The position numbers and the translations under genes were made by a program. A stretch of 35,683 bases of DNA, from the NCBI GenBank assembly GCA_964629105.1, contig CAZVPS010000003.1:1-35683 (forward strand), written 5' to 3'. Of the stretch, positions 16,451 to 24,132 are shown one piece after another. This DNA comes from an uncultured Anaerolineaceae bacterium (GTDB taxonomy: Bacteria > Chloroflexota > Limnocylindria > Limnocylindrales > CSP1-4). Position 1 is the stretch's first letter. The number at the start of each line of letters is the position of its first letter. The notes beneath the pieces are model-generated. The model worked only from the letters and a program-made list of their open reading frames with translations. It was not told where the DNA came from and searched no databases.

Positions 16451-16527
16451 GGTGGCCTTAGCTCAATCGGCAGAGCATCGGATTGTGGCTCCGAAGGTTA
16501 CGGGTTCAAGCCCCGTAGGCCACCCCA
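16451..16527 (+). tRNA. tRNA-His (GTG)
   Basis: Full cloverleaf: G-1, acceptor stem GTGGCCT/AGGCCAC, anticodon stem TCGGA/TCCGA with GTG at 16485-16487, TTCAAGC T-loop, C discriminator and encoded CCA. TACACT -10 at 16390-16395. Confidence 0.98.
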
Positions 16528-16661: not shown

Positions 16662-17801
16662 CTACTTCGGCGGGGCCTCTTCCGTCGGCATCTTCAGGCG
16701 GTTCTGGAACTCCTTGCCGTTGACCGTGCCCGCGCCGATCTGGTTCGGGAAGTTGACCGACCCCTGGTCCTCCGTGTCGACCCGGCCGCCCGGGGCGTTC
16801 GAGGCGTTGTCGTCCTCATCGAACGCCCTGATGGAGGCGGGCCAGTCGACGTAGCGCCGGACGAGGGCCTTCGCGTCGACCGACTTGTAGACCTTGCCCT
16901 TGCCGTAGCTGTAGCTGTTCGCGATCCGGTCGAGGAGCGGCTGGACCTTGTCGATGTAGACCGATCGCGACTCCCTCACGTGCTTCTGCTCGTGCTTTTC
17001 GAGCGCCGCGGCTGCCTTGTCGGTCACGTACCAGCCGCCTCCCTGGTCGCCCGGGGCGCTCGAGACGTAGTCGCGCTTGACGTTAACGATGCCGGTGCCC
17101 TCCATCACCCAGGCGTCGGCGTTCTCCGTGAAGCCACCCCAGTACGAGTCGTAGTCCGGGTCGACCTTCTCCATGCTGCCGGCCGGCTGGTTGCCCTTCG
17201 GGCCGGCACCGCCACCGCCCGCCCAGGCCTTCGTCCCGGTCCGACCGCCACCGGTGAACGCGTGCGGCCGCAGGTCGCCGTCCGGGTGGAGGGGGTCGAA
17301 GCCCTCGTCCGCCGCGTCGCCGAAGGGCACGGACCCCTCGCGCCCCGCGTCCTGGAACTCGCCCGCGACGGCGGCCGGCTCGGCGATGGGGAAGGGGCCG
17401 CCGCCCACCTCGACCGGCTCCTCGTCGTCCGGCGGGAGATCCCGCTCGGCGCGCTTCTCCGCCTTCTCGGCCTTGGTCGGCACCTCGCCTTCCTCGAGCG
17501 CCGGGACCTCGCCGACGAGGGATTCGGGCGAAGGCTCCGGCCCGGCCGACTCGACGGGCTCCTCCTGTCGGCCGGTGGTCGGCGCCGGGGCGGCCGGGGC
17601 GGCCGCGCTCGGGCGCGCGCGCAGCATCTGGACCACGGCCGCGTTGCCGGCCGAGCGCTGCAGGCCCAGCAACGCGCCGACCGGGACCTGGCCGGGCGCT
17701 GCCGCGCCCATTCCAGGCGCGTCCGCCCGCCCCGGGACGCGAGCAGAGTCGAGCTCGGGTTCCTCGGCGAAGGGACGCCTGACGCCCAGGTGATCGCCCA
17801 T
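16662..17801 (-). CDS. Hypothetical protein with an eCIS-effector-type LQRxxGNxAV leader, acidic/Pro linker and C-terminal HExxH domain
   Basis: LLGLQRSAGNAAVVQML (motif at 17634-17663) and LEKHEQKH (HEQKH at 16980-16994). The start is uncertain; ATG 17801 was chosen. Confidence 0.75.
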   Translation of the reverse strand: MGDHLGVRRPFAEEPELDSARVPGRADAPGMGAAAPGQVPVGALLGLQRSAGNAAVVQMLRARPSAAAPAAPAPTTGRQEEPVESAGPEPSPESLVGEVPALEEGEVPTKAEKAEKRAERDLPPDDEEPVEVGGGPFPIAEPAAVAGEFQDAGREGSVPFGDAADEGFDPLHPDGDLRPHAFTGGGRTGTKAWAGGGGAGPKGNQPAGSMEKVDPDYDSYWGGFTENADAWVMEGTGIVNVKRDYVSSAPGDQGGGWYVTDKAAAALEKHEQKHVRESRSVYIDKVQPLLDRIANSYSYGKGKVYKSVDAKALVRRYVDWPASIRAFDEDDNASNAPGGRVDTEDQGSVNFPNQIGAGTVNGKEFQNRLKMPTEEAPPK

Positions 17802-17998
17802 CGAGAAGCGATGCTGGAGACAGGTAGCCCGGATGTCAACGCCGGCGCAAGGATCTGCCCGAAGGTGCAGGCCCGGGCCCTGGCCGTGCATGGATCGCCG
17901 GGGCCGGTCGCGGCCCGCGCCCGGACGAAGGCAGCCGCACGCGAGTGATGCCGCCGCCGGTGCTGACCGCCGGCGCCTCCGCGCCTGGATGAGGGAGC

Positions 17999-18050: not shown

Positions 18051-19328
18051 TCAGGGGTAGAGGCCGCGCAGGACGGAGGCCTCAGCGACGCGCTGCACGG
18101 CGATGGCGTGCGCGGCCCGCCGCGGTTCGATCCCGTCGGCGTCCGCCCGCTCCCAGACGGCAGCCGCGGCCGCCAGGATCGCCTCGCGCAACCGGCCGTT
18201 GATGAGCTTCGGGGTCCAGAAGAGCGACTCACGGTTCTGGACCCACTCGAAGTAGGAGACGATGACCCCGCCCGCGTTGCACAGGATGTCGGGGATGACC
18301 ACGACGCCGTTGTCCTGGAGGATCGGGTCGGCGTCGGGGGTCGTCGGGCCGTTCGCGCCTTCCGCGAGGATGCGGGCGCGGACGTTCCCGGCGTTCGCGG
18401 CCGTGATCTGGCCCTCCATGGCGGCGAGGACCAGGACGTCCACGTCGAGCCCGAACAGGTGCTCGTTGTCGATGGGCTCCGTCCCGGGCGCCCCTGCCAG
18501 GGAGCCGCGCTCCTGCATGAACCGCCGGAGGAAGGGCACGTCCAGGCCTTCTTCGCGGTAGACGCCGCCGCCGATGTCAGTGACGGCGACGACGCGCGCC
18601 CGGGCCTGGTGGAGGAGCCGGGCGGTCGCCTCTCCGACGTTGCCGAAGCCCTGGACGGCGGCCGTCGCGCCGGCGAGCGGGAACCCGAGACGCCGCGCTG
18701 CCGCCTCCTCGATCGTGTAGACGACGCCTTGCCCGGTCGCGTCGGCGCGGCCCTGGGAGCCGCCGATGGCCACCGGCTTCCCGGTGACCACACCGGGCAC
18801 GCTGTAGCCGCGGTGCATGGAGATGGTGTCCATGATCCAGGCCATCGTCTGGGCGTTCGTGCCCACGTCCGGGGCCGGGATGTCGGAATCCGGCCCGATG
18901 AGCACCTCGAGCTCAGTCGCGAAACGGCGCGTCAGTGCCTCTAGCTCCCTGGGGCTCATGGTCCGCGGGTCGCAGGTCACGCCGCCCTTGGCCCCGCCGA
19001 AGGGGACGTTCACGAGGGCACATTTCCAGGTCATCCACATCGCGAGGGCGCGGACCTCGTCGAGGTCGGTGCAGGGGTGGTAGCGCAGCCCGCCCTTGGC
19101 CGGCCCGCGCGCGACGTTGTGCTGCACGCGGTAGCCCGTGAAGACCCGGACGCTGCCGTCGTCGAGCCGGACCGGGAAGCGCACGGTCAGCTCGCGCTGC
19201 GGCGCCCGCAGGATCTGCCGGATCCCGTCGTCGAGACCCAGGTGGTCCGCCGCGGCGTCGAACTGGGCGAGGGCGGCGGCGAGGGCTCCGGCGCCGGGGG
19301 CGGGCGCGCGGGTGAGCAGCTGGGTCAT
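18051..19328 (-). CDS. gdhA: Glu/Leu/Phe/Val dehydrogenase (glutamate dehydrogenase)
   Basis: Motifs RGPAKGGLRY, MTWKCAL...PFGGAKGG, DIPAPDVGT, VTGKP..IGGS.GR, QGFGNVG, EGANGP, NAGGV.VSYFEWVQN. 425 aa. Confidence 0.95.
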   Translation of the reverse strand: MTQLLTRAPAPGAGALAAALAQFDAAADHLGLDDGIRQILRAPQRELTVRFPVRLDDGSVRVFTGYRVQHNVARGPAKGGLRYHPCTDLDEVRALAMWMTWKCALVNVPFGGAKGGVTCDPRTMSPRELEALTRRFATELEVLIGPDSDIPAPDVGTNAQTMAWIMDTISMHRGYSVPGVVTGKPVAIGGSQGRADATGQGVVYTIEEAAARRLGFPLAGATAAVQGFGNVGEATARLLHQARARVVAVTDIGGGVYREEGLDVPFLRRFMQERGSLAGAPGTEPIDNEHLFGLDVDVLVLAAMEGQITAANAGNVRARILAEGANGPTTPDADPILQDNGVVVIPDILCNAGGVIVSYFEWVQNRESLFWTPKLINGRLREAILAAAAAVWERADADGIEPRRAAHAIAVQRVAEASVLRGLYP

Positions 19329-19420
19329 CGATGGCTCCGGTCGGCTGGGCGGGGCCGGCCCGTGCCGGCGCAGTCCGCCCGAGAGCAGGGTCGCGCGCCC
19401 GCACGAACATGCCGATGGAC

Positions 19421-19476
19421 GCACATGAACGCCCCGTGAATATCCGGGCGGCGACATTCACGCGCCGTTCATGCGC
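19421..19476. promoter_or_regulatory. Imperfect 24-bp inverted repeat, each arm made of an 11-bp-spaced TGAA direct repeat (putative response-regulator sites)
   Basis: GCACATGAACGCCCCGTGAATATC-N8-GACATTCACGCGCCGTTCATGCGC. The arms match at 20/24 positions. Lies in the divergent gdhA intergenic region. Confidence 0.65.
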
Positions 19477-19592
19477 GTTCCCCGCCCGGTTCAGGTCCGC
19501 CGTCGACCATGCAGGGCGTGGCGTTCCGCCAGCACCGAGGGACGCGCCCGCCGGACGCCAACGCGGGCGCGTCCCGCCAGTCGAGGACCGAG

Positions 19593-19826
19593 ATGCCGAC
19601 GCAACCGACCTTCACCTGCGCCACCTGCGACGACGCGATCGCGGGCCGGCCGACCTTCCACCTCGGCCTCGCGTTCTGCTGCGCGGGCTGCGCCGCCGAC
19701 GGCCCGTGCATGTGCACCTACGACCACGAGGAACTTCATGACAGCCCCAGTGCCGCCGTTGTCGTCGACTTCGAGCTCCTCGCGGTGGCCGATGACGAGC
19801 GAAGCCCGGTGGGCGCTCGCGGTTGA
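19593..19826 (+). CDS. Small Cys-rich metal-binding protein (metallothionein/TRASH-like)
   Basis: 77 aa with CATC-x16-CCAGC-x5-CMC and a His/acidic tail. GAGGA SD before ATG 19593. Confidence 0.7.
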   Translation: MPTQPTFTCATCDDAIAGRPTFHLGLAFCCAGCAADGPCMCTYDHEELHDSPSAAVVVDFELLAVADDERSPVGARG

Positions 19827-20181
19827 GGCTGGCCATCTCGCTGCCGACCTGCGGCAGCCGGCGGATGCCCCCGTCACGCTCCCCCTTCGCCGTTCCGAGG
19901 CGGCAGCGCGGCTCGCGCTGATCCGGGCGATCCTCGACGGTGGGGAACTCGTCGACCACTGCGATCGGGCGGCCATCGGCCGTCGCGTGACCCTTCGGGA
20001 GGCGGACGGCGAGACGGTGACGTACGCCCTCGTGATCCCCGGCGACGGCGATCCCGGTCACGGCTGGCTGGCCATCGACACGCCGCTGGGGGCGGCGATC
20101 CTCGGCCGTCGCCCCGGAGACCGGGTGGGCGTCGCGGCCCCGGCGGGCGAACGCACCGTGGCCGTCGTGGGCGTGGCCTGA
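19738..20181 (+). CDS. GreA/GreB-family protein with a shortened N-terminal coiled coil (Rnk-like)
   Basis: C-domain AAIGRRVTLRE..GE..TYALV.PGDGDP..GWLAIDTPLGAAILGRRPGD.V.V.APAG. Lacks the GDLSENAEY acidic tip. Start is ATG 19738 (GAGGA SD) or 19792. Confidence 0.8.
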   Translation: MTAPVPPLSSTSSSSRWPMTSEARWALAVEAGHLAADLRQPADAPVTLPLRRSEAAARLALIRAILDGGELVDHCDRAAIGRRVTLREADGETVTYALVIPGDGDPGHGWLAIDTPLGAAILGRRPGDRVGVAAPAGERTVAVVGVA

Positions 20182-20214
20182 CCCGTGGCCGGACCCCCAG
20201 CGTATGCTCCCGTC

Positions 20215-21228
20215 GTGAAGTACGGCGCCGATCTCCCCGCGTCGGACGGACCCGGGCCGTCGCCGCTCGTCGGCTCGGCGCTGGCCCTCGTCGGCGAGGG
20301 CGCGACGCCGGCGGACCTCGTGGAACGGTTCGCCGCCGCCGGGGCCCACCTCGGCGAGGCGCGGGCCGTCGCCCTCCTGGCGGACCTGGCCGGATTGGGC
20401 CTCGTCCGCGTGGCGCGGCACAAGGGCGACGGCCGGGTCCACGTGCTCACCACTCTGGGGCGCCAGGTCCGCGATGCCGGCGTCGGCGCGAACGCGGAGA
20501 TCAACCTCCACCTCGCGGAGCTGGAGCGGCTGCGGACGGACCTGCTCTCCACGATCGCCCACGAGCTTCGGACCCCCCTCACCGCCGTGCGGACGTGCGT
20601 GGGCGTCCTCCGCGATCCCGAAACGACGCCGACGGCGGCGGAGCAGGATGCGCTCCTCGCCACGATCGAGCGGAACGCCGACCGGATGCAGCGCGTAGTC
20701 GGGGACATCCTCGAGATCGCCCGCTTTCGGACCGGCGGGGTGGTCCTCCAGCTGCGTCGCTTCGACGCGTCGGCGATGGCCCGCGGGGCCGTCGCCTCGC
20801 TGGCGCCCCTCGCGGCCCAGCGCGACCAGGCGATCGAGCTCGACGTGCCGGGCGCGCCGGTCCGGGTCTTCGGCGATCACCGCCGCCTGGAGCAGGCCGT
20901 CGTCAACCTCATCTCCAACGCCGTCAAGTACGGACCGCAGGGCGGCACGATCACGGTCCGCGTTCGTCCCGTGGGAAGCTCGGTCACCTGGGCGGTGACC
21001 GACCAGGGGCCCGGGATCCCGATCAACGAGCAGCCGCACCTGTTCGAGCGCTTCTTCGTCGGCCAGAACGACCGCAAGGGCGCCGGGGGCGGGGTCGGGC
21101 TGGGGCTGCCGACCGCCCTCGCGATCGCCCAGGCGCACGGCGGCGGAATCGATGTGACGAGCGTGCCGGGCTACGGCAGCGTTTTCAGCGTCGTGGTGCC
21201 CGCCGAGGGGCCGTCGGACGTGGAGTGA
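20215..21228 (+). CDS. Soluble sensor histidine kinase with an N-terminal winged-helix-like domain
   Basis: H-box IAHELRTPLT, N-box NLISNAVKY, G1 DQGPGI, F-box LFERFF, G2 GVGLGL. No TM segment. GTG 20215 lies 6 nt after TATGCT. Confidence 0.9.
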   Translation: MKYGADLPASDGPGPSPLVGSALALVGEGATPADLVERFAAAGAHLGEARAVALLADLAGLGLVRVARHKGDGRVHVLTTLGRQVRDAGVGANAEINLHLAELERLRTDLLSTIAHELRTPLTAVRTCVGVLRDPETTPTAAEQDALLATIERNADRMQRVVGDILEIARFRTGGVVLQLRRFDASAMARGAVASLAPLAAQRDQAIELDVPGAPVRVFGDHRRLEQAVVNLISNAVKYGPQGGTITVRVRPVGSSVTWAVTDQGPGIPINEQPHLFERFFVGQNDRKGAGGGVGLGLPTALAIAQAHGGGIDVTSVPGYGSVFSVVVPAEGPSDVE

Positions 21229-21923
21229 TGCGGATCCTGGTGGTGGACGACGCGCCGGACGTCGTGGAGTCGGTGCGCCTGGGGTTCACGCTCCAATGGC
21301 GCGACGTCGAGGTCCTGGGCGCCGGCACAGGCGAGCAGGCGCTCGACATCGTCGAGAGGGAGCGGCCTGACATCGTGCTCCTCGACGTGGGGCTGCCCGA
21401 CGTGGACGGCTTCGGGGTGCTCCGCGAGATCCGCCTCTTCTCCGACGTCCCCGTGGTGATGCTGACGGCACGCGACGACGCGATGGACAAGGTCAAGGGC
21501 CTGGAGCTGGGCGCCGACGACTACGTGACGAAGCCGTTCAACCACCTGGAGCTGATGGCCCGCGTGCGGGCGGTCCTGCGCCGCCACGAGATGCCGCCCC
21601 CGACCAGCCGCGCGCCGTCCTTCCGGGCCCTGGATCTCGAGGTCGACTTCGCCGCCCACGAGGTGCGGCTCTGCGGCGAGCGGCTCGACCTGACGCCCAC
21701 CGAGTACAAGCTCCTGTACCACCTCGTGCGGAACTCCGGGCACGTCCTCCAGCACGGGACCCTGCTGGCCAAGGTCTGGGGCCGCGAGTACCTCGACGAG
21801 GTCGACTACCTGCGCGTCTACGTCCGCCGTCTCCGCGACAAGCTCGGTGACGACCCCGACCATCCGCGGTACATCCGGACGGAGCGCGGGCTTGGCTACC
21901 GTTTCATCGCGGCCCGCGGCTGA
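21228..21923 (+). CDS. OmpR/PhoB-family response regulator (KdpE-like)
   Basis: Motifs ILVVDD, LLDVGLPDVDG, MLTA, GADDYVTKPF, LTPTEYKLL, LRVYVRRLRDKL, TERGLGYRF. TGATG overlap with the kinase. Confidence 0.95.
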   Translation: MRILVVDDAPDVVESVRLGFTLQWRDVEVLGAGTGEQALDIVERERPDIVLLDVGLPDVDGFGVLREIRLFSDVPVVMLTARDDAMDKVKGLELGADDYVTKPFNHLELMARVRAVLRRHEMPPPTSRAPSFRALDLEVDFAAHEVRLCGERLDLTPTEYKLLYHLVRNSGHVLQHGTLLAKVWGREYLDEVDYLRVYVRRLRDKLGDDPDHPRYIRTERGLGYRFIAARG

Positions 21924-22024
21924 TCGGCCCTGCACCCGCGCGCGATCCCGGCCGGACACCTCCCGCATCCGCGTCCGAGCCCGCTCGGGCAAGATGGTAA
22001 ATCCCGTACCGCGCTACTGTACGA

Positions 22025-22807
22025 ATGATGGAACGCAGCTCCCCCGCCCGGGCGGCACCGGCACGCACCCTCTGGTTCCCGCACCAGCACGGCGCCTGGG
22101 CGATGCTCGCCGTGCCGCTCCTCCTGGGCATCGCGGCCTCGGCCCCGTCGCCCTGGCATCTCGTCCTCGCCGGGGCGGCGGTCACGGGCTATCTCGCCGC
22201 CGCCACTGCCCAGGCGTGGCTGCGGGCGCGTCGGCGCCCGTCGTTCGTCCCCTCCCTCGCCCTCTACGGCGGCGTCTTCGCCGCGACCGGTGCGCTCCTG
22301 GTCCTGGCCTTCCCGTCCCTGCTGCTCGCCGCCGTCGTCGTCGTCCCGGCCGGCGCCCTGATCGTCGGCGGGGCGCGCCCGGGCACGCCGCGGGACCTGG
22401 TCACCAGCCTGGCCCAAGCCGCGATCGCCCTCGTGCTGGCACCGGCGGCCGCGCAGGTCTCGGGAGCGTGGGAGACGGACGCCGTGCTGCGGGCCACGCT
22501 CGTGGCCGCGGCCTATCTCGGGGGAACCATCCTGGTGGTCCGCTCGGTCATCCGGGAGCGCGGGAACCGCGGCTTCACGGCCCTCTCGGCGGCGTTCCAC
22601 GCCGCCCTCGTCGTGCTCGCGGCGGCCTTCCTCCCCTGGCCGTACGCGGCCTGCGCGGCGGGCCTCACCGCGCGCGCGATCGCCCTGCCGCTCGTCGAGC
22701 GCCGGCGGGCCGGGACCGCGCGCCCGCTCCGGCCGATCCACGTCGGCATCGTCGAGATCGTCGCCTCGACGATCCTGGTGGTCCTCGCCTTCGCGATCCC
22801 GCTGTAA
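22025..22807 (+). CDS. YwiC-like family membrane protein
   Basis: N-terminal P.QHGAWAML..P motif, about 8 hydrophobic helices, V..VRSVIRER and VGIVE motifs. The start may be ATG 22028. Confidence 0.8.
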   Translation: MMERSSPARAAPARTLWFPHQHGAWAMLAVPLLLGIAASAPSPWHLVLAGAAVTGYLAAATAQAWLRARRRPSFVPSLALYGGVFAATGALLVLAFPSLLLAAVVVVPAGALIVGGARPGTPRDLVTSLAQAAIALVLAPAAAQVSGAWETDAVLRATLVAAAYLGGTILVVRSVIRERGNRGFTALSAAFHAALVVLAAAFLPWPYAACAAGLTARAIALPLVERRRAGTARPLRPIHVGIVEIVASTILVVLAFAIPL

Positions 22808-23025
22808 AGCCGGAGCCGGCGGGAGCGCCGGGGTCGCCCGCCGCGCGCCGCGACCGAGTGGGAGCCCGCCCGCGCGCGGCCTCCGAACCACGCCGCGAAC
22901 CCTTGCGACCCGGTGCTACGATCCGCCCGACCCCGAGCCGGCACCTCGTACGGGGCCCGTCCGCGCCGCCTCGGCGGCCGTGATGCAAGGGCCCGCGATG
23001 ACCCGACCGGGAGGAGGAGAAGCGC

Positions 23026-24132
23026 ATGGCCACCGTCGCGTTCGACCATGTCACCAAGAAGTACGGCGAGGTGACGGCCGTCGACGACCTGAGCCTCTCC
23101 ATCGAGGACGGGGAGTTCATGGTCTTGGTGGGCCCATCGGGCTGTGGCAAGACCACCGGTCTGCGGATGATCGCCGGCCTCGAGGACATCACCGAGGGCA
23201 CGATCTCGATCGGCGACCGGGTCGTCAACGACATCGCGCCCAAGGATCGCGACATCGCGATGGTCTTCCAGAGCTACGCGCTCTATCCCCACATGAACGT
23301 GTACGACAACCTCGCCTTCGGCCTCAAGCTCCGCAAGGTCGAGAAGAAGGAGATCGACCGGCGGGTCAAGGCGGCGGCCGAGACGATCCAGCTCACGGCG
23401 CTTCTCCAGCGCAAGCCGAAGGAGCTCTCCGGCGGCCAGCGCCAGCGCGTCGCCCTGGGCCGGGCAATCGTCCGGGAGCCCGCCGTCTTCCTGATGGACG
23501 AGCCGCTCTCGAACCTCGACGCGAAGCTGCGCGTCCAGACGCGCGCCGAGATCGCCCGGCTCCACAAGCGTCTCAAGACGACGATCGTCTACGTCACTCA
23601 CGACCAGGTCGAGGCGATGACGATGGGCCAGCGGATCGCCGTCATGAGCCAGGCGAAGCTCCAGCAGGTCGGCACGCCCCAGGCGCTCTACGACCATCCG
23701 AACAACAAGTTCGTGGCGGGCTTCATCGGCAGCCCGGCCATGAACTTCCTCCCGGTCGAGCTGACGGGGACCGGCGAATCCGCGGTGCTGCGCGGCGAGG
23801 GCGTGCAGGTCCCGCTCCCCGTGCCCTTCCGCGAGGCGGTCGGCGCCGTCTCCGGCAGGCGGTTCACCGTCGGGATCAGGCCCGAGCACCTCGACGTCGC
23901 CCCCACCGGCGGGACCAGCGCGACCGTTGAGGCCCGGGCCGACGTCGTCGAGTACCTCGGCAACGAGGAGCTCCTCCACATCGGGATCGCCGGGGCCGAC
24001 ATCGTGGCCATCGTCTCGGCGGACCGCCGCGTCCGCCCGGACGACGTGGTCACGGTCCACATCCCACTCGACAAGATGCACCTGTTCGACGCCGAGTCGG
24101 AGCTGAGCCTGCGGCGCACCGCAGCGAGCTGA
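23026..24132 (+). CDS. MalK/UgpC/MsmX-type sugar ABC transporter ATPase with TOBE domain
   Basis: Motifs GPSGCGKTT, MVFQSYALYPHM, LSGGQRQRVA, DEPLSNLDAKLR, GFIGSPAMN, GIRPEH. GGAGGAG SD, and TGCTACGAT extended -10 at 22914-22922. Confidence 0.95.
   Translation: MATVAFDHVTKKYGEVTAVDDLSLSIEDGEFMVLVGPSGCGKTTGLRMIAGLEDITEGTISIGDRVVNDIAPKDRDIAMVFQSYALYPHMNVYDNLAFGLKLRKVEKKEIDRRVKAAAETIQLTALLQRKPKELSGGQRQRVALGRAIVREPAVFLMDEPLSNLDAKLRVQTRAEIARLHKRLKTTIVYVTHDQVEAMTMGQRIAVMSQAKLQQVGTPQALYDHPNNKFVAGFIGSPAMNFLPVELTGTGESAVLRGEGVQVPLPVPFREAVGAVSGRRFTVGIRPEHLDVAPTGGTSATVEARADVVEYLGNEELLHIGIAGADIVAIVSADRRVRPDDVVTVHIPLDKMHLFDAESELSLRRTAAS

Follow-up and report, generated by a model that had tools for sequence, protein, structure and literature searches.

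Two-component systems of the OmpR/PhoB class, such as PhoR-PhoB and MtrAB, consist of a HisKA/HATPase histidine kinase followed by a regulator with a receiver and a winged-helix domain, the two genes overlapping at their stop and start codons. The pho box is composed of 7-bp direct repeats with 4-bp spacers, which gives an 11-bp period. In actinomycetes, the orphan OmpR-type regulator GlnR controls gdhA via repeated 5–6 bp sites with a spacing of about 11 bp. Here we describe a locus of related design in a 35,683-nt stretch of DNA (73% G+C; the window) from an uncultured member of the Chloroflexota. It is a genuine, previously undescribed accessory gene cassette, in which a gene for glutamate dehydrogenase (gdh; GDH) lies divergent from genes for a cysteine-rich small protein (the Cys protein), a histidine kinase and an OmpR-type response regulator. 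We consider it probable, though well short of certain, that this is a self-contained, autoregulated two-component cassette controlling a dedicated second GDH. With PhoR-PhoB, MtrAB and other OmpR/PhoB systems it shares the order and domains of kinase and regulator and the overlapping codons, and its candidate operator likewise shows 7-bp direct repeats, 4-bp spacers and an 11-bp period. Unlike PhoR-PhoB and MtrAB, the cassette kinase has a predicted PadR/MarR-like winged helix as its sensor instead of a membrane or PAS domain, exact matches to the cassette's repeat are confined to the cassette, and its proteins score below every equivalog cut-off. It differs from GlnR in that the regulator has a cognate kinase, a different repeat, an accessory paralog as its proposed target and a Chloroflexota host.

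In the window the operon also encodes a short factor of the Gre type. This protein shares with GreA/GreB, Gfh1, Rv3788 and Rnk the GreA_GreB C-terminal domain and an N-terminal helical hairpin starting at PMT; unlike GreA/GreB, Gfh1 and Rnk, it comes from a two-component operon, and its reading frame either overlaps that of a Cys7His domain or is fused with it. In the review PMC4598747, the coiled coil of Rnk is reported to be too short for the active centre, Rnk is able to compete for RNA polymerase, and its function is described as unknown. By analogy only, the cassette also resembles DksA, where a cysteine/zinc module is joined with a coiled-coil RNA-polymerase-binding factor. DksA is a secondary-channel factor whose four-cysteine zinc finger acts as a thiol switch. 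Signalling by DksA and DnaJ in response to redox is the subject of PMC6294903. Unlike in DksA, to which no sequence relationship was found, the cassette has a globular domain of the Gre type, and its cysteine domain stands at the N-terminus or forms a protein of its own. The pattern of the Cys protein, C-x2-C ... F-C-C-x-G-C-A-x-G-P-C-x-C, is similar to the [FY]-C-S-x-x-C core found in the bacterial metallothionein SmtA/BmtA and in the TRASH/YHS/zf-FCS modules. Yet, unlike SmtA/BmtA (PF02069) and the TRASH/YHS/zf-FCS treble-clef zinc modules, the Cys protein of the window gave no match to these families at E≤10. The features of the cassette are as follows.

18051–19328, minus strand: gdh, accessory glutamate dehydrogenase paralog of 425 aa (ELFV_dehydrog, 3e-70; N-terminal domain, 3e-58)
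19424–19441, plus strand: tandem direct repeat CATGAAC-N4-CGTGAAT (CATGAACGCCCCGTGAAT) with an 11-bp period, proposed regulator site for gdh
19456–19473, minus strand: the tandem repeat in inverted form (CATGAACGGCGCGTGAAT), 120 nt before the ATG of the Cys gene, proposed autoregulatory site
19593–19826, plus strand: Cys7His1 small protein of 77 aa (Cys 9, 12, 29, 30, 33, 39 and 41, and His23)
19738 or 19792–20181, plus strand: short Gre/Gfh1/Rnk-like factor (PF01272), 147 aa from the ATG at 19738 or 129 aa from the ATG at 19792
20185–21228, plus strand: histidine kinase with an N-terminal winged helix (about residues 28–98), a long helix, HisKA and HATPase_c, from domain scan and structure model
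21228–21923, plus strand: OmpR/PhoB-family response regulator of 231 aa (Response_reg and Trans_reg_C)

For comparison we used 42 genomes of the window's genus, together with 62 loci found by searching metagenome contigs with the Cys-protein alignment alone, a set unbiased for counting the other genes. A search of named genomes with the Gre-like family gave 28 further loci, which were chosen via the Gre-like gene and are thus uninformative on its frequency. The genome bin of the window (G000) is 55% complete and comprises 453 contigs. Domain scans and coordinates placed all six genes of the original prediction, which had combined gdh, the Cys protein, the Gre-like factor, the kinase, the regulator and a YwiC-like membrane protein into one module, where it had put them. 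The conserved core is smaller than this six-gene proposal and consists of gdh divergent from the genes for the Cys protein, the histidine kinase (HK) and the OmpR-type response regulator (RR). Within the genus, the Cys protein is present in 20 of the 42 genomes; the kinase ortholog (at least 50% identity) is confined to the same 20, and so is the accessory gdh paralog; the remaining 22 have none of the three. All 19 other cassette genomes of the genus keep the order gdh<->cys>HK>RR. Among the informative metagenome loci, gdh lies divergently upstream of the Cys gene in 45 of 47, the kinase gene downstream of it in 49 of 50 and the regulator gene downstream of it in 23 of 23. Most of the 28 named loci have the order gdh<->cys>gre>HK>RR. 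Seven loci (L069, L072, L075, L076, L080, L083, and L088) are rearranged, yet the cassette genes stay linked in them; neighbours outside the five cassette genes vary from locus to locus. The synteny in relatives that the original prediction called for was thus found for gdh, the Cys protein, the kinase and the regulator. A full-text literature search (supplements outside its scope) yielded no account of the gdh/Cys/Gre/two-component combination, in line with the earlier statement that no described system combines these genes.

Three genus loci (L055 in G049, L044 in G021, and L053 in G006) carry a gdh or kinase gene split by frameshifts, and in G049 the open reading frame (ORF) of the Cys protein continues into the kinase frame; such split genes are either decaying cassettes or assembly errors. 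As to host range, 27 of the 28 named loci are titled Chloroflexota, mostly Limnocylindria or Limnocylindrales. The sole locus titled Acidimicrobiia (L072) is nearly identical here to L069, titled Chloroflexi, and one of the two labels is probably wrong. An actinobacterial host and a transfer of the cassette between phyla were rejected, as the window's genus falls within the order of a named Chloroflexota genome: an order-level draw of 121 genomes around the latter gave matches with the contig numbers and coordinates of G007 and G011.

The GDH of the cassette clearly belongs to its family, scoring 237 bits with ELFV_dehydrog (cut-off 23.4) and 195 bits with ELFV_dehydrog_N (cut-off 25.3). Among NCBIfam models, those of archaeal GdhA and haloarchaeal GdhB come nearest, without reaching their cut-offs. 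Its orthologs in the cassette genomes of the genus show 67–92% identity. A distinct gdh, with about 56% identity, is carried by all 42 genus genomes (in G000 at C22:9500-10759). The cassette paralog is likely the regulated target of the two-component system encoded beside it.

The proposed link between the two is the spacer between gdh and the Cys gene, where the original prediction had placed a structured operator-like element. Its presence was confirmed: the pattern CRTGAAYNNNNCRTGAAY, with at most one mismatch, matched twice in the window against 0.04 matches expected, and none of 100 shuffles reached two. Read on the gdh strand, the repeat at 19424–19441 becomes RTTCAYG-N4-RTTCAYG and lies 96 nt upstream of the gdh ATG. 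An additional GTTCA is found at 19489–19493. Across 32 intergenic regions we counted 25 top-strand and 22 bottom-strand tandem pairs, with the consensus CRTGAAC-N4-CRTGAAY. By its sequence, the candidate operator is two inverted pairs of direct repeats with the architecture of OmpR/PhoB sites. The exact pattern occurs twice per genome in G007, G004, and G048 (each 95% complete), both times in the gdh-cys spacer. No exact match was present in the cassette-free G001 and G005, and a reversed-pattern control likewise gave none. G000 has three matches, two in the gdh-cys spacer and one at C39:6044; the last was dismissed as a chance occurrence inside a 709-aa ORF. A promoter and terminator scan of 19250–22950 found nothing. 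At one rearranged locus, an ORF between regulator and gdh (L075:7359-8264, plus strand) resembles by eye a tandem universal stress protein (Usp); it has its own tandem repeat upstream (L075:7070) and may be an extra regulon member there. A Pfam-confirmed Usp gene lies nearby in L065.

The kinase scores 61.8 bits with HisKA and 96.1 bits with HATPase_c, and its H126 is invariant in 43 sequences. An AlphaFold2 model of residues 1–120 reached a mean predicted local distance difference test (pLDDT) value of 80, with values above 90 for residues 30–100, and contains three helices, a beta wing and a long helix. The top Foldseek neighbours of this N-terminus are PadR, MarR and RosR regulators, with modest scores (E ~1e-3, template modelling score 0.45–0.58), and its match to MarR_2 (E = 0.009, 16.6 bits) falls below the cut-off of 27. 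The model thus suggests a PadR/MarR-like winged-helix fold for the sensor domain, and the earlier designation of the protein as a winged helix-turn-helix kinase is supported at fold level only. As the N-terminus models as a soluble winged helix, we call it cytoplasmic. The kinase stays below the equivalog cut-offs of PhoR (168.8 vs. 334 bits), MtrB (161.3 vs. 450 bits) and WalK (146.5 vs. 725 bits). The regulator is a member of the OmpR/PhoB family (Response_reg 96.3 bits, Trans_reg_C 88.1 bits), its ATG has one base in common with the stop codon of the kinase gene, and it is 79–97% identical across all cassette loci. Its closest solved relatives are MtrA, KdpE, RegX3 and PhoP, and it falls under every NCBIfam equivalog cut-off, including that of MtrA (211.6 vs. 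300 bits).

We propose that the soluble kinase senses a cytoplasmic cue, either via its winged helix or via the Cys protein, and would phosphorylate the regulator. The regulator would then bind the CRTGAAC repeats, 7-bp units in tandem with a period of 11 bp. As one pair faces gdh and the other the regulator's own operon, gdh and the sensor operon would be switched together.

The first gene of this operon encodes the Cys7His1 protein, which, judged by its residues, probably holds zinc or acts as a thiol switch. It comprises a 44-residue domain of metal-binding type, a tail of variable length and a conserved C-terminal motif. In 55 sequences C9, C12, C29, C30, G32, C33, C39, and C41 are invariant and H23 is nearly so. 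Even at E≤10, the protein of the window had no match in Pfam or NCBIfam, nor had that of L063 in Pfam, and a profile of the family matched no solved structure. The Cys protein is represented by 108 clusters, all of them hypothetical or unnamed and none with a Pfam domain. A search of 1.84 billion representatives with the Cys-domain profile returned 410 at E≤0.001. When 20 of the longer ones were scanned, seven proved to be a Cys domain joined to a Gre-like protein, seven carried two Cys domains and a 6-pyruvoyl-tetrahydropterin synthase (PTPS), and six were without a Pfam family. Those of the second group (P0251, P0265, P0277, P0284, P0297, P0340, and P0346; about 400–466 aa) have a PTPS/QueD-like domain, and one such two-Cys+PTPS gene (L177:343-1638, minus strand) adjoins a regulator and a kinase gene. 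P0346 also matches Metallothio_Pro (PF02069) with E = 2e-5 and 25 bits, below the cut-off of 33. The Cys domain was found in 49 of 401 genomes in a phylum-level draw (a count that includes one unpublished genome, G398) and in 11 of the 121 genomes of the order-level draw. In other Chloroflexota, 13 of 18 scanned loci from the phylum-level draw (L169-L192) have a stand-alone Cys gene directly next to groES/groEL, which suggests a stress or proteostasis link for the family. In L192, an Hsp90 gene is located on the other side of the Cys gene from groES/groEL.

In an overlapping frame, the window encodes the Gre/Rnk-like factor, with which the Cys protein is proposed to work as a partner. Where present, this factor would probably act at the secondary channel of RNA polymerase, falling short of the catalytic centre. 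It carries the GreA_GreB C-terminal domain (PF01272) with 60.8 bits against a cut-off of 26.9. Its ORF overlaps the tail of the Cys ORF in frame +1, by 35 nt with the start at 19792 or by 89 nt with the start at 19738. The family members are 147–149 aa long, 50–57% identical to the window copy and have an invariant RWPMT motif. A profile of the family matches Gfh1 (1.5e-8), GreA (5e-8), GreB, and Rnk (3bmb, 3e-5) over nearly the full length. Compared with Gfh1, about 12 residues of the coiled coil are missing, and the window copy lacks a further 7 at the tip. No residue between D37 and A55 is invariant in the family, and the tip in the window reads PADAP. The GreA equivalog models gave at most 43 bits against cut-offs of 139–234, GreB was also far below its cut-off, and the two Rnk models gave 32.4 vs. 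109 bits (NF004396) and 38.1 vs. 126 bits (NF004548). The original prediction had called the factor truncated; this stands as regards the short coiled coil without a conserved tip, but the near full-length alignment with Gfh1 and GreA shows that it is no mere C-terminal fragment.

The Gre-like gene is a genuine but optional member of the cassette. It lies between the Cys and kinase genes in 15 of 50 informative metagenome loci, so that its predicted synteny held in a subset of loci and not as a constant feature. No ortholog was found in the other 41 genus genomes, whose best matches are paralogs of at most 38% identity, and 18 of the other 19 genomes with the cassette lack the gene; G007 retains a remnant, the first 38 codons, which makes loss at least as likely as gain. 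The idea that the gene is an insertion specific to the window genome was rejected after the family and its cassette context were found elsewhere. In a kinase tree (a quick tree, the careful search being unfinished; L055 and L072, which are broken rows, and identical duplicates were dropped), the window pairs with G007 (support 97) within a clade of 28 rows otherwise without the gene (support 99). The seven fusions among the longer Cys-domain representatives are single polypeptides, 32–49% identical to the fusion in L066, and speak for joint action of the Cys domain and the Gre-like factor. Some Chloroflexota loci (L193 and L191) have two Gre-like genes around the Cys gene; in L191, a 318-aa ORF has a Gre C-terminal domain and the Cys-domain match falls in the same ORF.

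Several other explanations of the locus were weighed. It seems quite unlikely that the palindrome in the spacer works as a hairpin of RNA or DNA, for example as a leader attenuator or stability element, rather than as protein sites. Positions 19415–19482 do fold as a hairpin of -32 kcal/mol (z = -3.5), as stable as none of 200 shuffles, and its arms are conserved with a variable loop. Yet each arm is itself a direct repeat of 11-bp period, with the third GTTCA 22 bp on; the distance between the inverted tandem pairs ranges from 4 to 43 bp across loci; and tandem sites also occur unpaired. Thus, gdh has moved downstream of the operon, onto the same strand, in L075 and L076, and about 120 nt upstream of it there is a tandem site of the same relative orientation; in L077, L083, L084, and L088 a single tandem site without inverted partner lies upstream of cys or gre. 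No Rfam family matched the gdh-cys spacer at E≤1. Taken together, the differing distances, the unpaired sites at rearranged loci and the missing Rfam match favour protein binding sites over a hairpin. The same moved copies of gdh bear on the view that its place beside the operon is inherited synteny, with the system regulating its own operon or distant genes and gdh being constitutive or otherwise controlled. Divergent neighbours often share a spacer without shared control, the tie between gdh and the regulator is a prediction from sequence, and, since all loci are from one phylum, the linkage could be young. We nevertheless hold this view to be unlikely, because gdh keeps its own tandem site after its move downstream of the operon, the paralog never occurs in the genus without the kinase and Cys protein, and the exact operator pattern matches nowhere else in the three 95%-complete genomes.

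A further question is whether the Cys and Gre-like ORFs yield one protein in the window too, through a +1 ribosomal frameshift or a sequencing error. The natural in-frame fusions in at least seven representatives and L066 would fit this, as would the position of the Gre frame, +1 to the Cys frame, in a fixed register: at 24 loci, the window among them, exactly 35 nt separate the ATG of RWPMT from the Cys stop that follows it. However, contigs from three studies reproduce the split junction, which together with the 24 loci speaks against a sequencing error. The C-terminal motif of the Cys frame is kept also at loci without a Gre-like gene, and the Cys ORF thus ends where it appears to. A GAGGA preceding the ATG at 19738 by 5 nt is consistent with independent initiation, and overall we judge a single protein here to be quite improbable. 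The least probable alternative, in our view a very remote one, is that all six genes including YwiC form one anaerobiosis-linked circuit. The sixth gene is:

22025–22807, plus strand: YwiC-like membrane protein (PF14256, 85.6 bits vs. 25), an adjacent backbone gene outside the cassette

This gene follows the regulator gene in 14 of 19 genus loci and in the window starts 101 bp downstream of it, with no terminator-like site predicted between. However, of the 25 of 42 genus genomes that have YwiC, nine are cassette-free, and it is missing from four cassette genomes. In the cassette-free G001, G012, and G042 the order dinB ... ywiC ... abc-nudix is found without a gdh, Cys, kinase or regulator gene, which indicates that the cassette is an insertion or deletion beside a backbone gene. 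None of the 28 named Chloroflexota loci had a ywiC match, and only 1 of 15 informative metagenome loci did. As its distribution is independent of the cassette, YwiC was dropped from the module, and the parallel drawn earlier with the anaerobiosis region of Bacillus subtilis ywiC carries no weight.

Beyond ywiC, a malK-III RNA motif (Rfam RF03009, 70 bits vs. a gathering threshold of 50) was detected at 22934–23000, cut at the end of the searched range. It precedes a gene for a MalK-like ABC ATPase (23026–24132), and such a leader points to a separate transcription unit. On the other side, between the DinB-like gene and the cassette, lie a tRNA gene (16452–16524) and a 409-aa ORF (16662–17891, minus strand), which belongs to no Pfam or NCBIfam family and contains an HEQKH (HExxH-like) stretch; its relatives flank the cassette in a few genus genomes only.

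Other observations weigh against the autoregulated cassette that we favour. Regulator binding, phosphotransfer and expression control are at the stage of proposals; the same goes for the signal, the direction of regulation, the binding of metal and a contact with RNA polymerase or the kinase. One RNA-library contig spans 19217–19421, covering the gdh 5′ end and 93 nt upstream, and is a weak hint of gdh expression; it comes without strand information, and contaminating DNA is possible. The relatives compared are non-independent, and the division of the genus into 20 genomes with and 22 without the cassette may reflect few gain or loss events. In addition, the unassembled part of the 55% complete G000 could hold further operator copies. 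For the Cys protein, the window copy matches no metal-binding family, its structure model has a mean pLDDT of 52 and is too poor to use, and the metal-binding proposal draws on the Cys/His pattern and the one below-cut-off match in the relative P0346. The domain's occurrence beside groES/groEL and in fusion with PTPS means that its role is not specific to this circuit. Finally, the kinase tree requires at least 11 gains or losses of the Gre-like gene, of which at least six are forced by well-supported branches. Since this gene is missing from most cassettes and was often gained or lost, the core circuit appears to work without it.

A more far-reaching reading, which we regard as doubtful, is that the Cys7His domain and the short Gre-like protein form a switchable regulator of the RNA-polymerase secondary channel, a functional analogue of DksA, with metal or thiol gating at the gdh and operon promoters. 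The two would be one polypeptide in some lineages and two overlapping frames here, perhaps accompanied by a fraction of +1 frameshifted fusion product. Metal or the oxidation of thiols would be the signal by which the Cys domain controls how RNA polymerase responds at promoters bound by the regulator, and the lone Cys domain upstream of groES-groEL would be a general stress-sensing transcription module of the phylum. The original prediction had envisaged a cytoplasmic circuit for metal, redox or nitrogen sensing that couples the two-component system to RNA polymerase and glutamate metabolism. Of this, the coupling of the two-component system to gdh gains support from the operator; the coupling to RNA polymerase and the sensing of metal or redox state stay conjectural, strengthened only by the Cys-Gre fusions and the weak metallothionein-like match in a relative.

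The proposed autoregulated two-component cassette is of interest in the Chloroflexota, an abundant phylum of soil and groundwater with next to no genetics. It is a compact model circuit, with one operator motif, a kinase, a regulator and an enzyme, which could be rebuilt in a heterologous host. It brings together a kinase with a sensor of transcription-factor type, predicted to be a PadR/MarR-like winged helix, and an unnamed cysteine-rich domain family with 410 representatives, whose recurring partners are Gre-like factors, PTPS and groES/groEL neighbourhoods. It also supplies a physiological setting for short factors of the Gre/Rnk type, whose role is still unknown according to PMC4598747. 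If the regulator does switch the second GDH, the cassette would be an add-on module by which these bacteria tune glutamate catabolism or ammonium assimilation.

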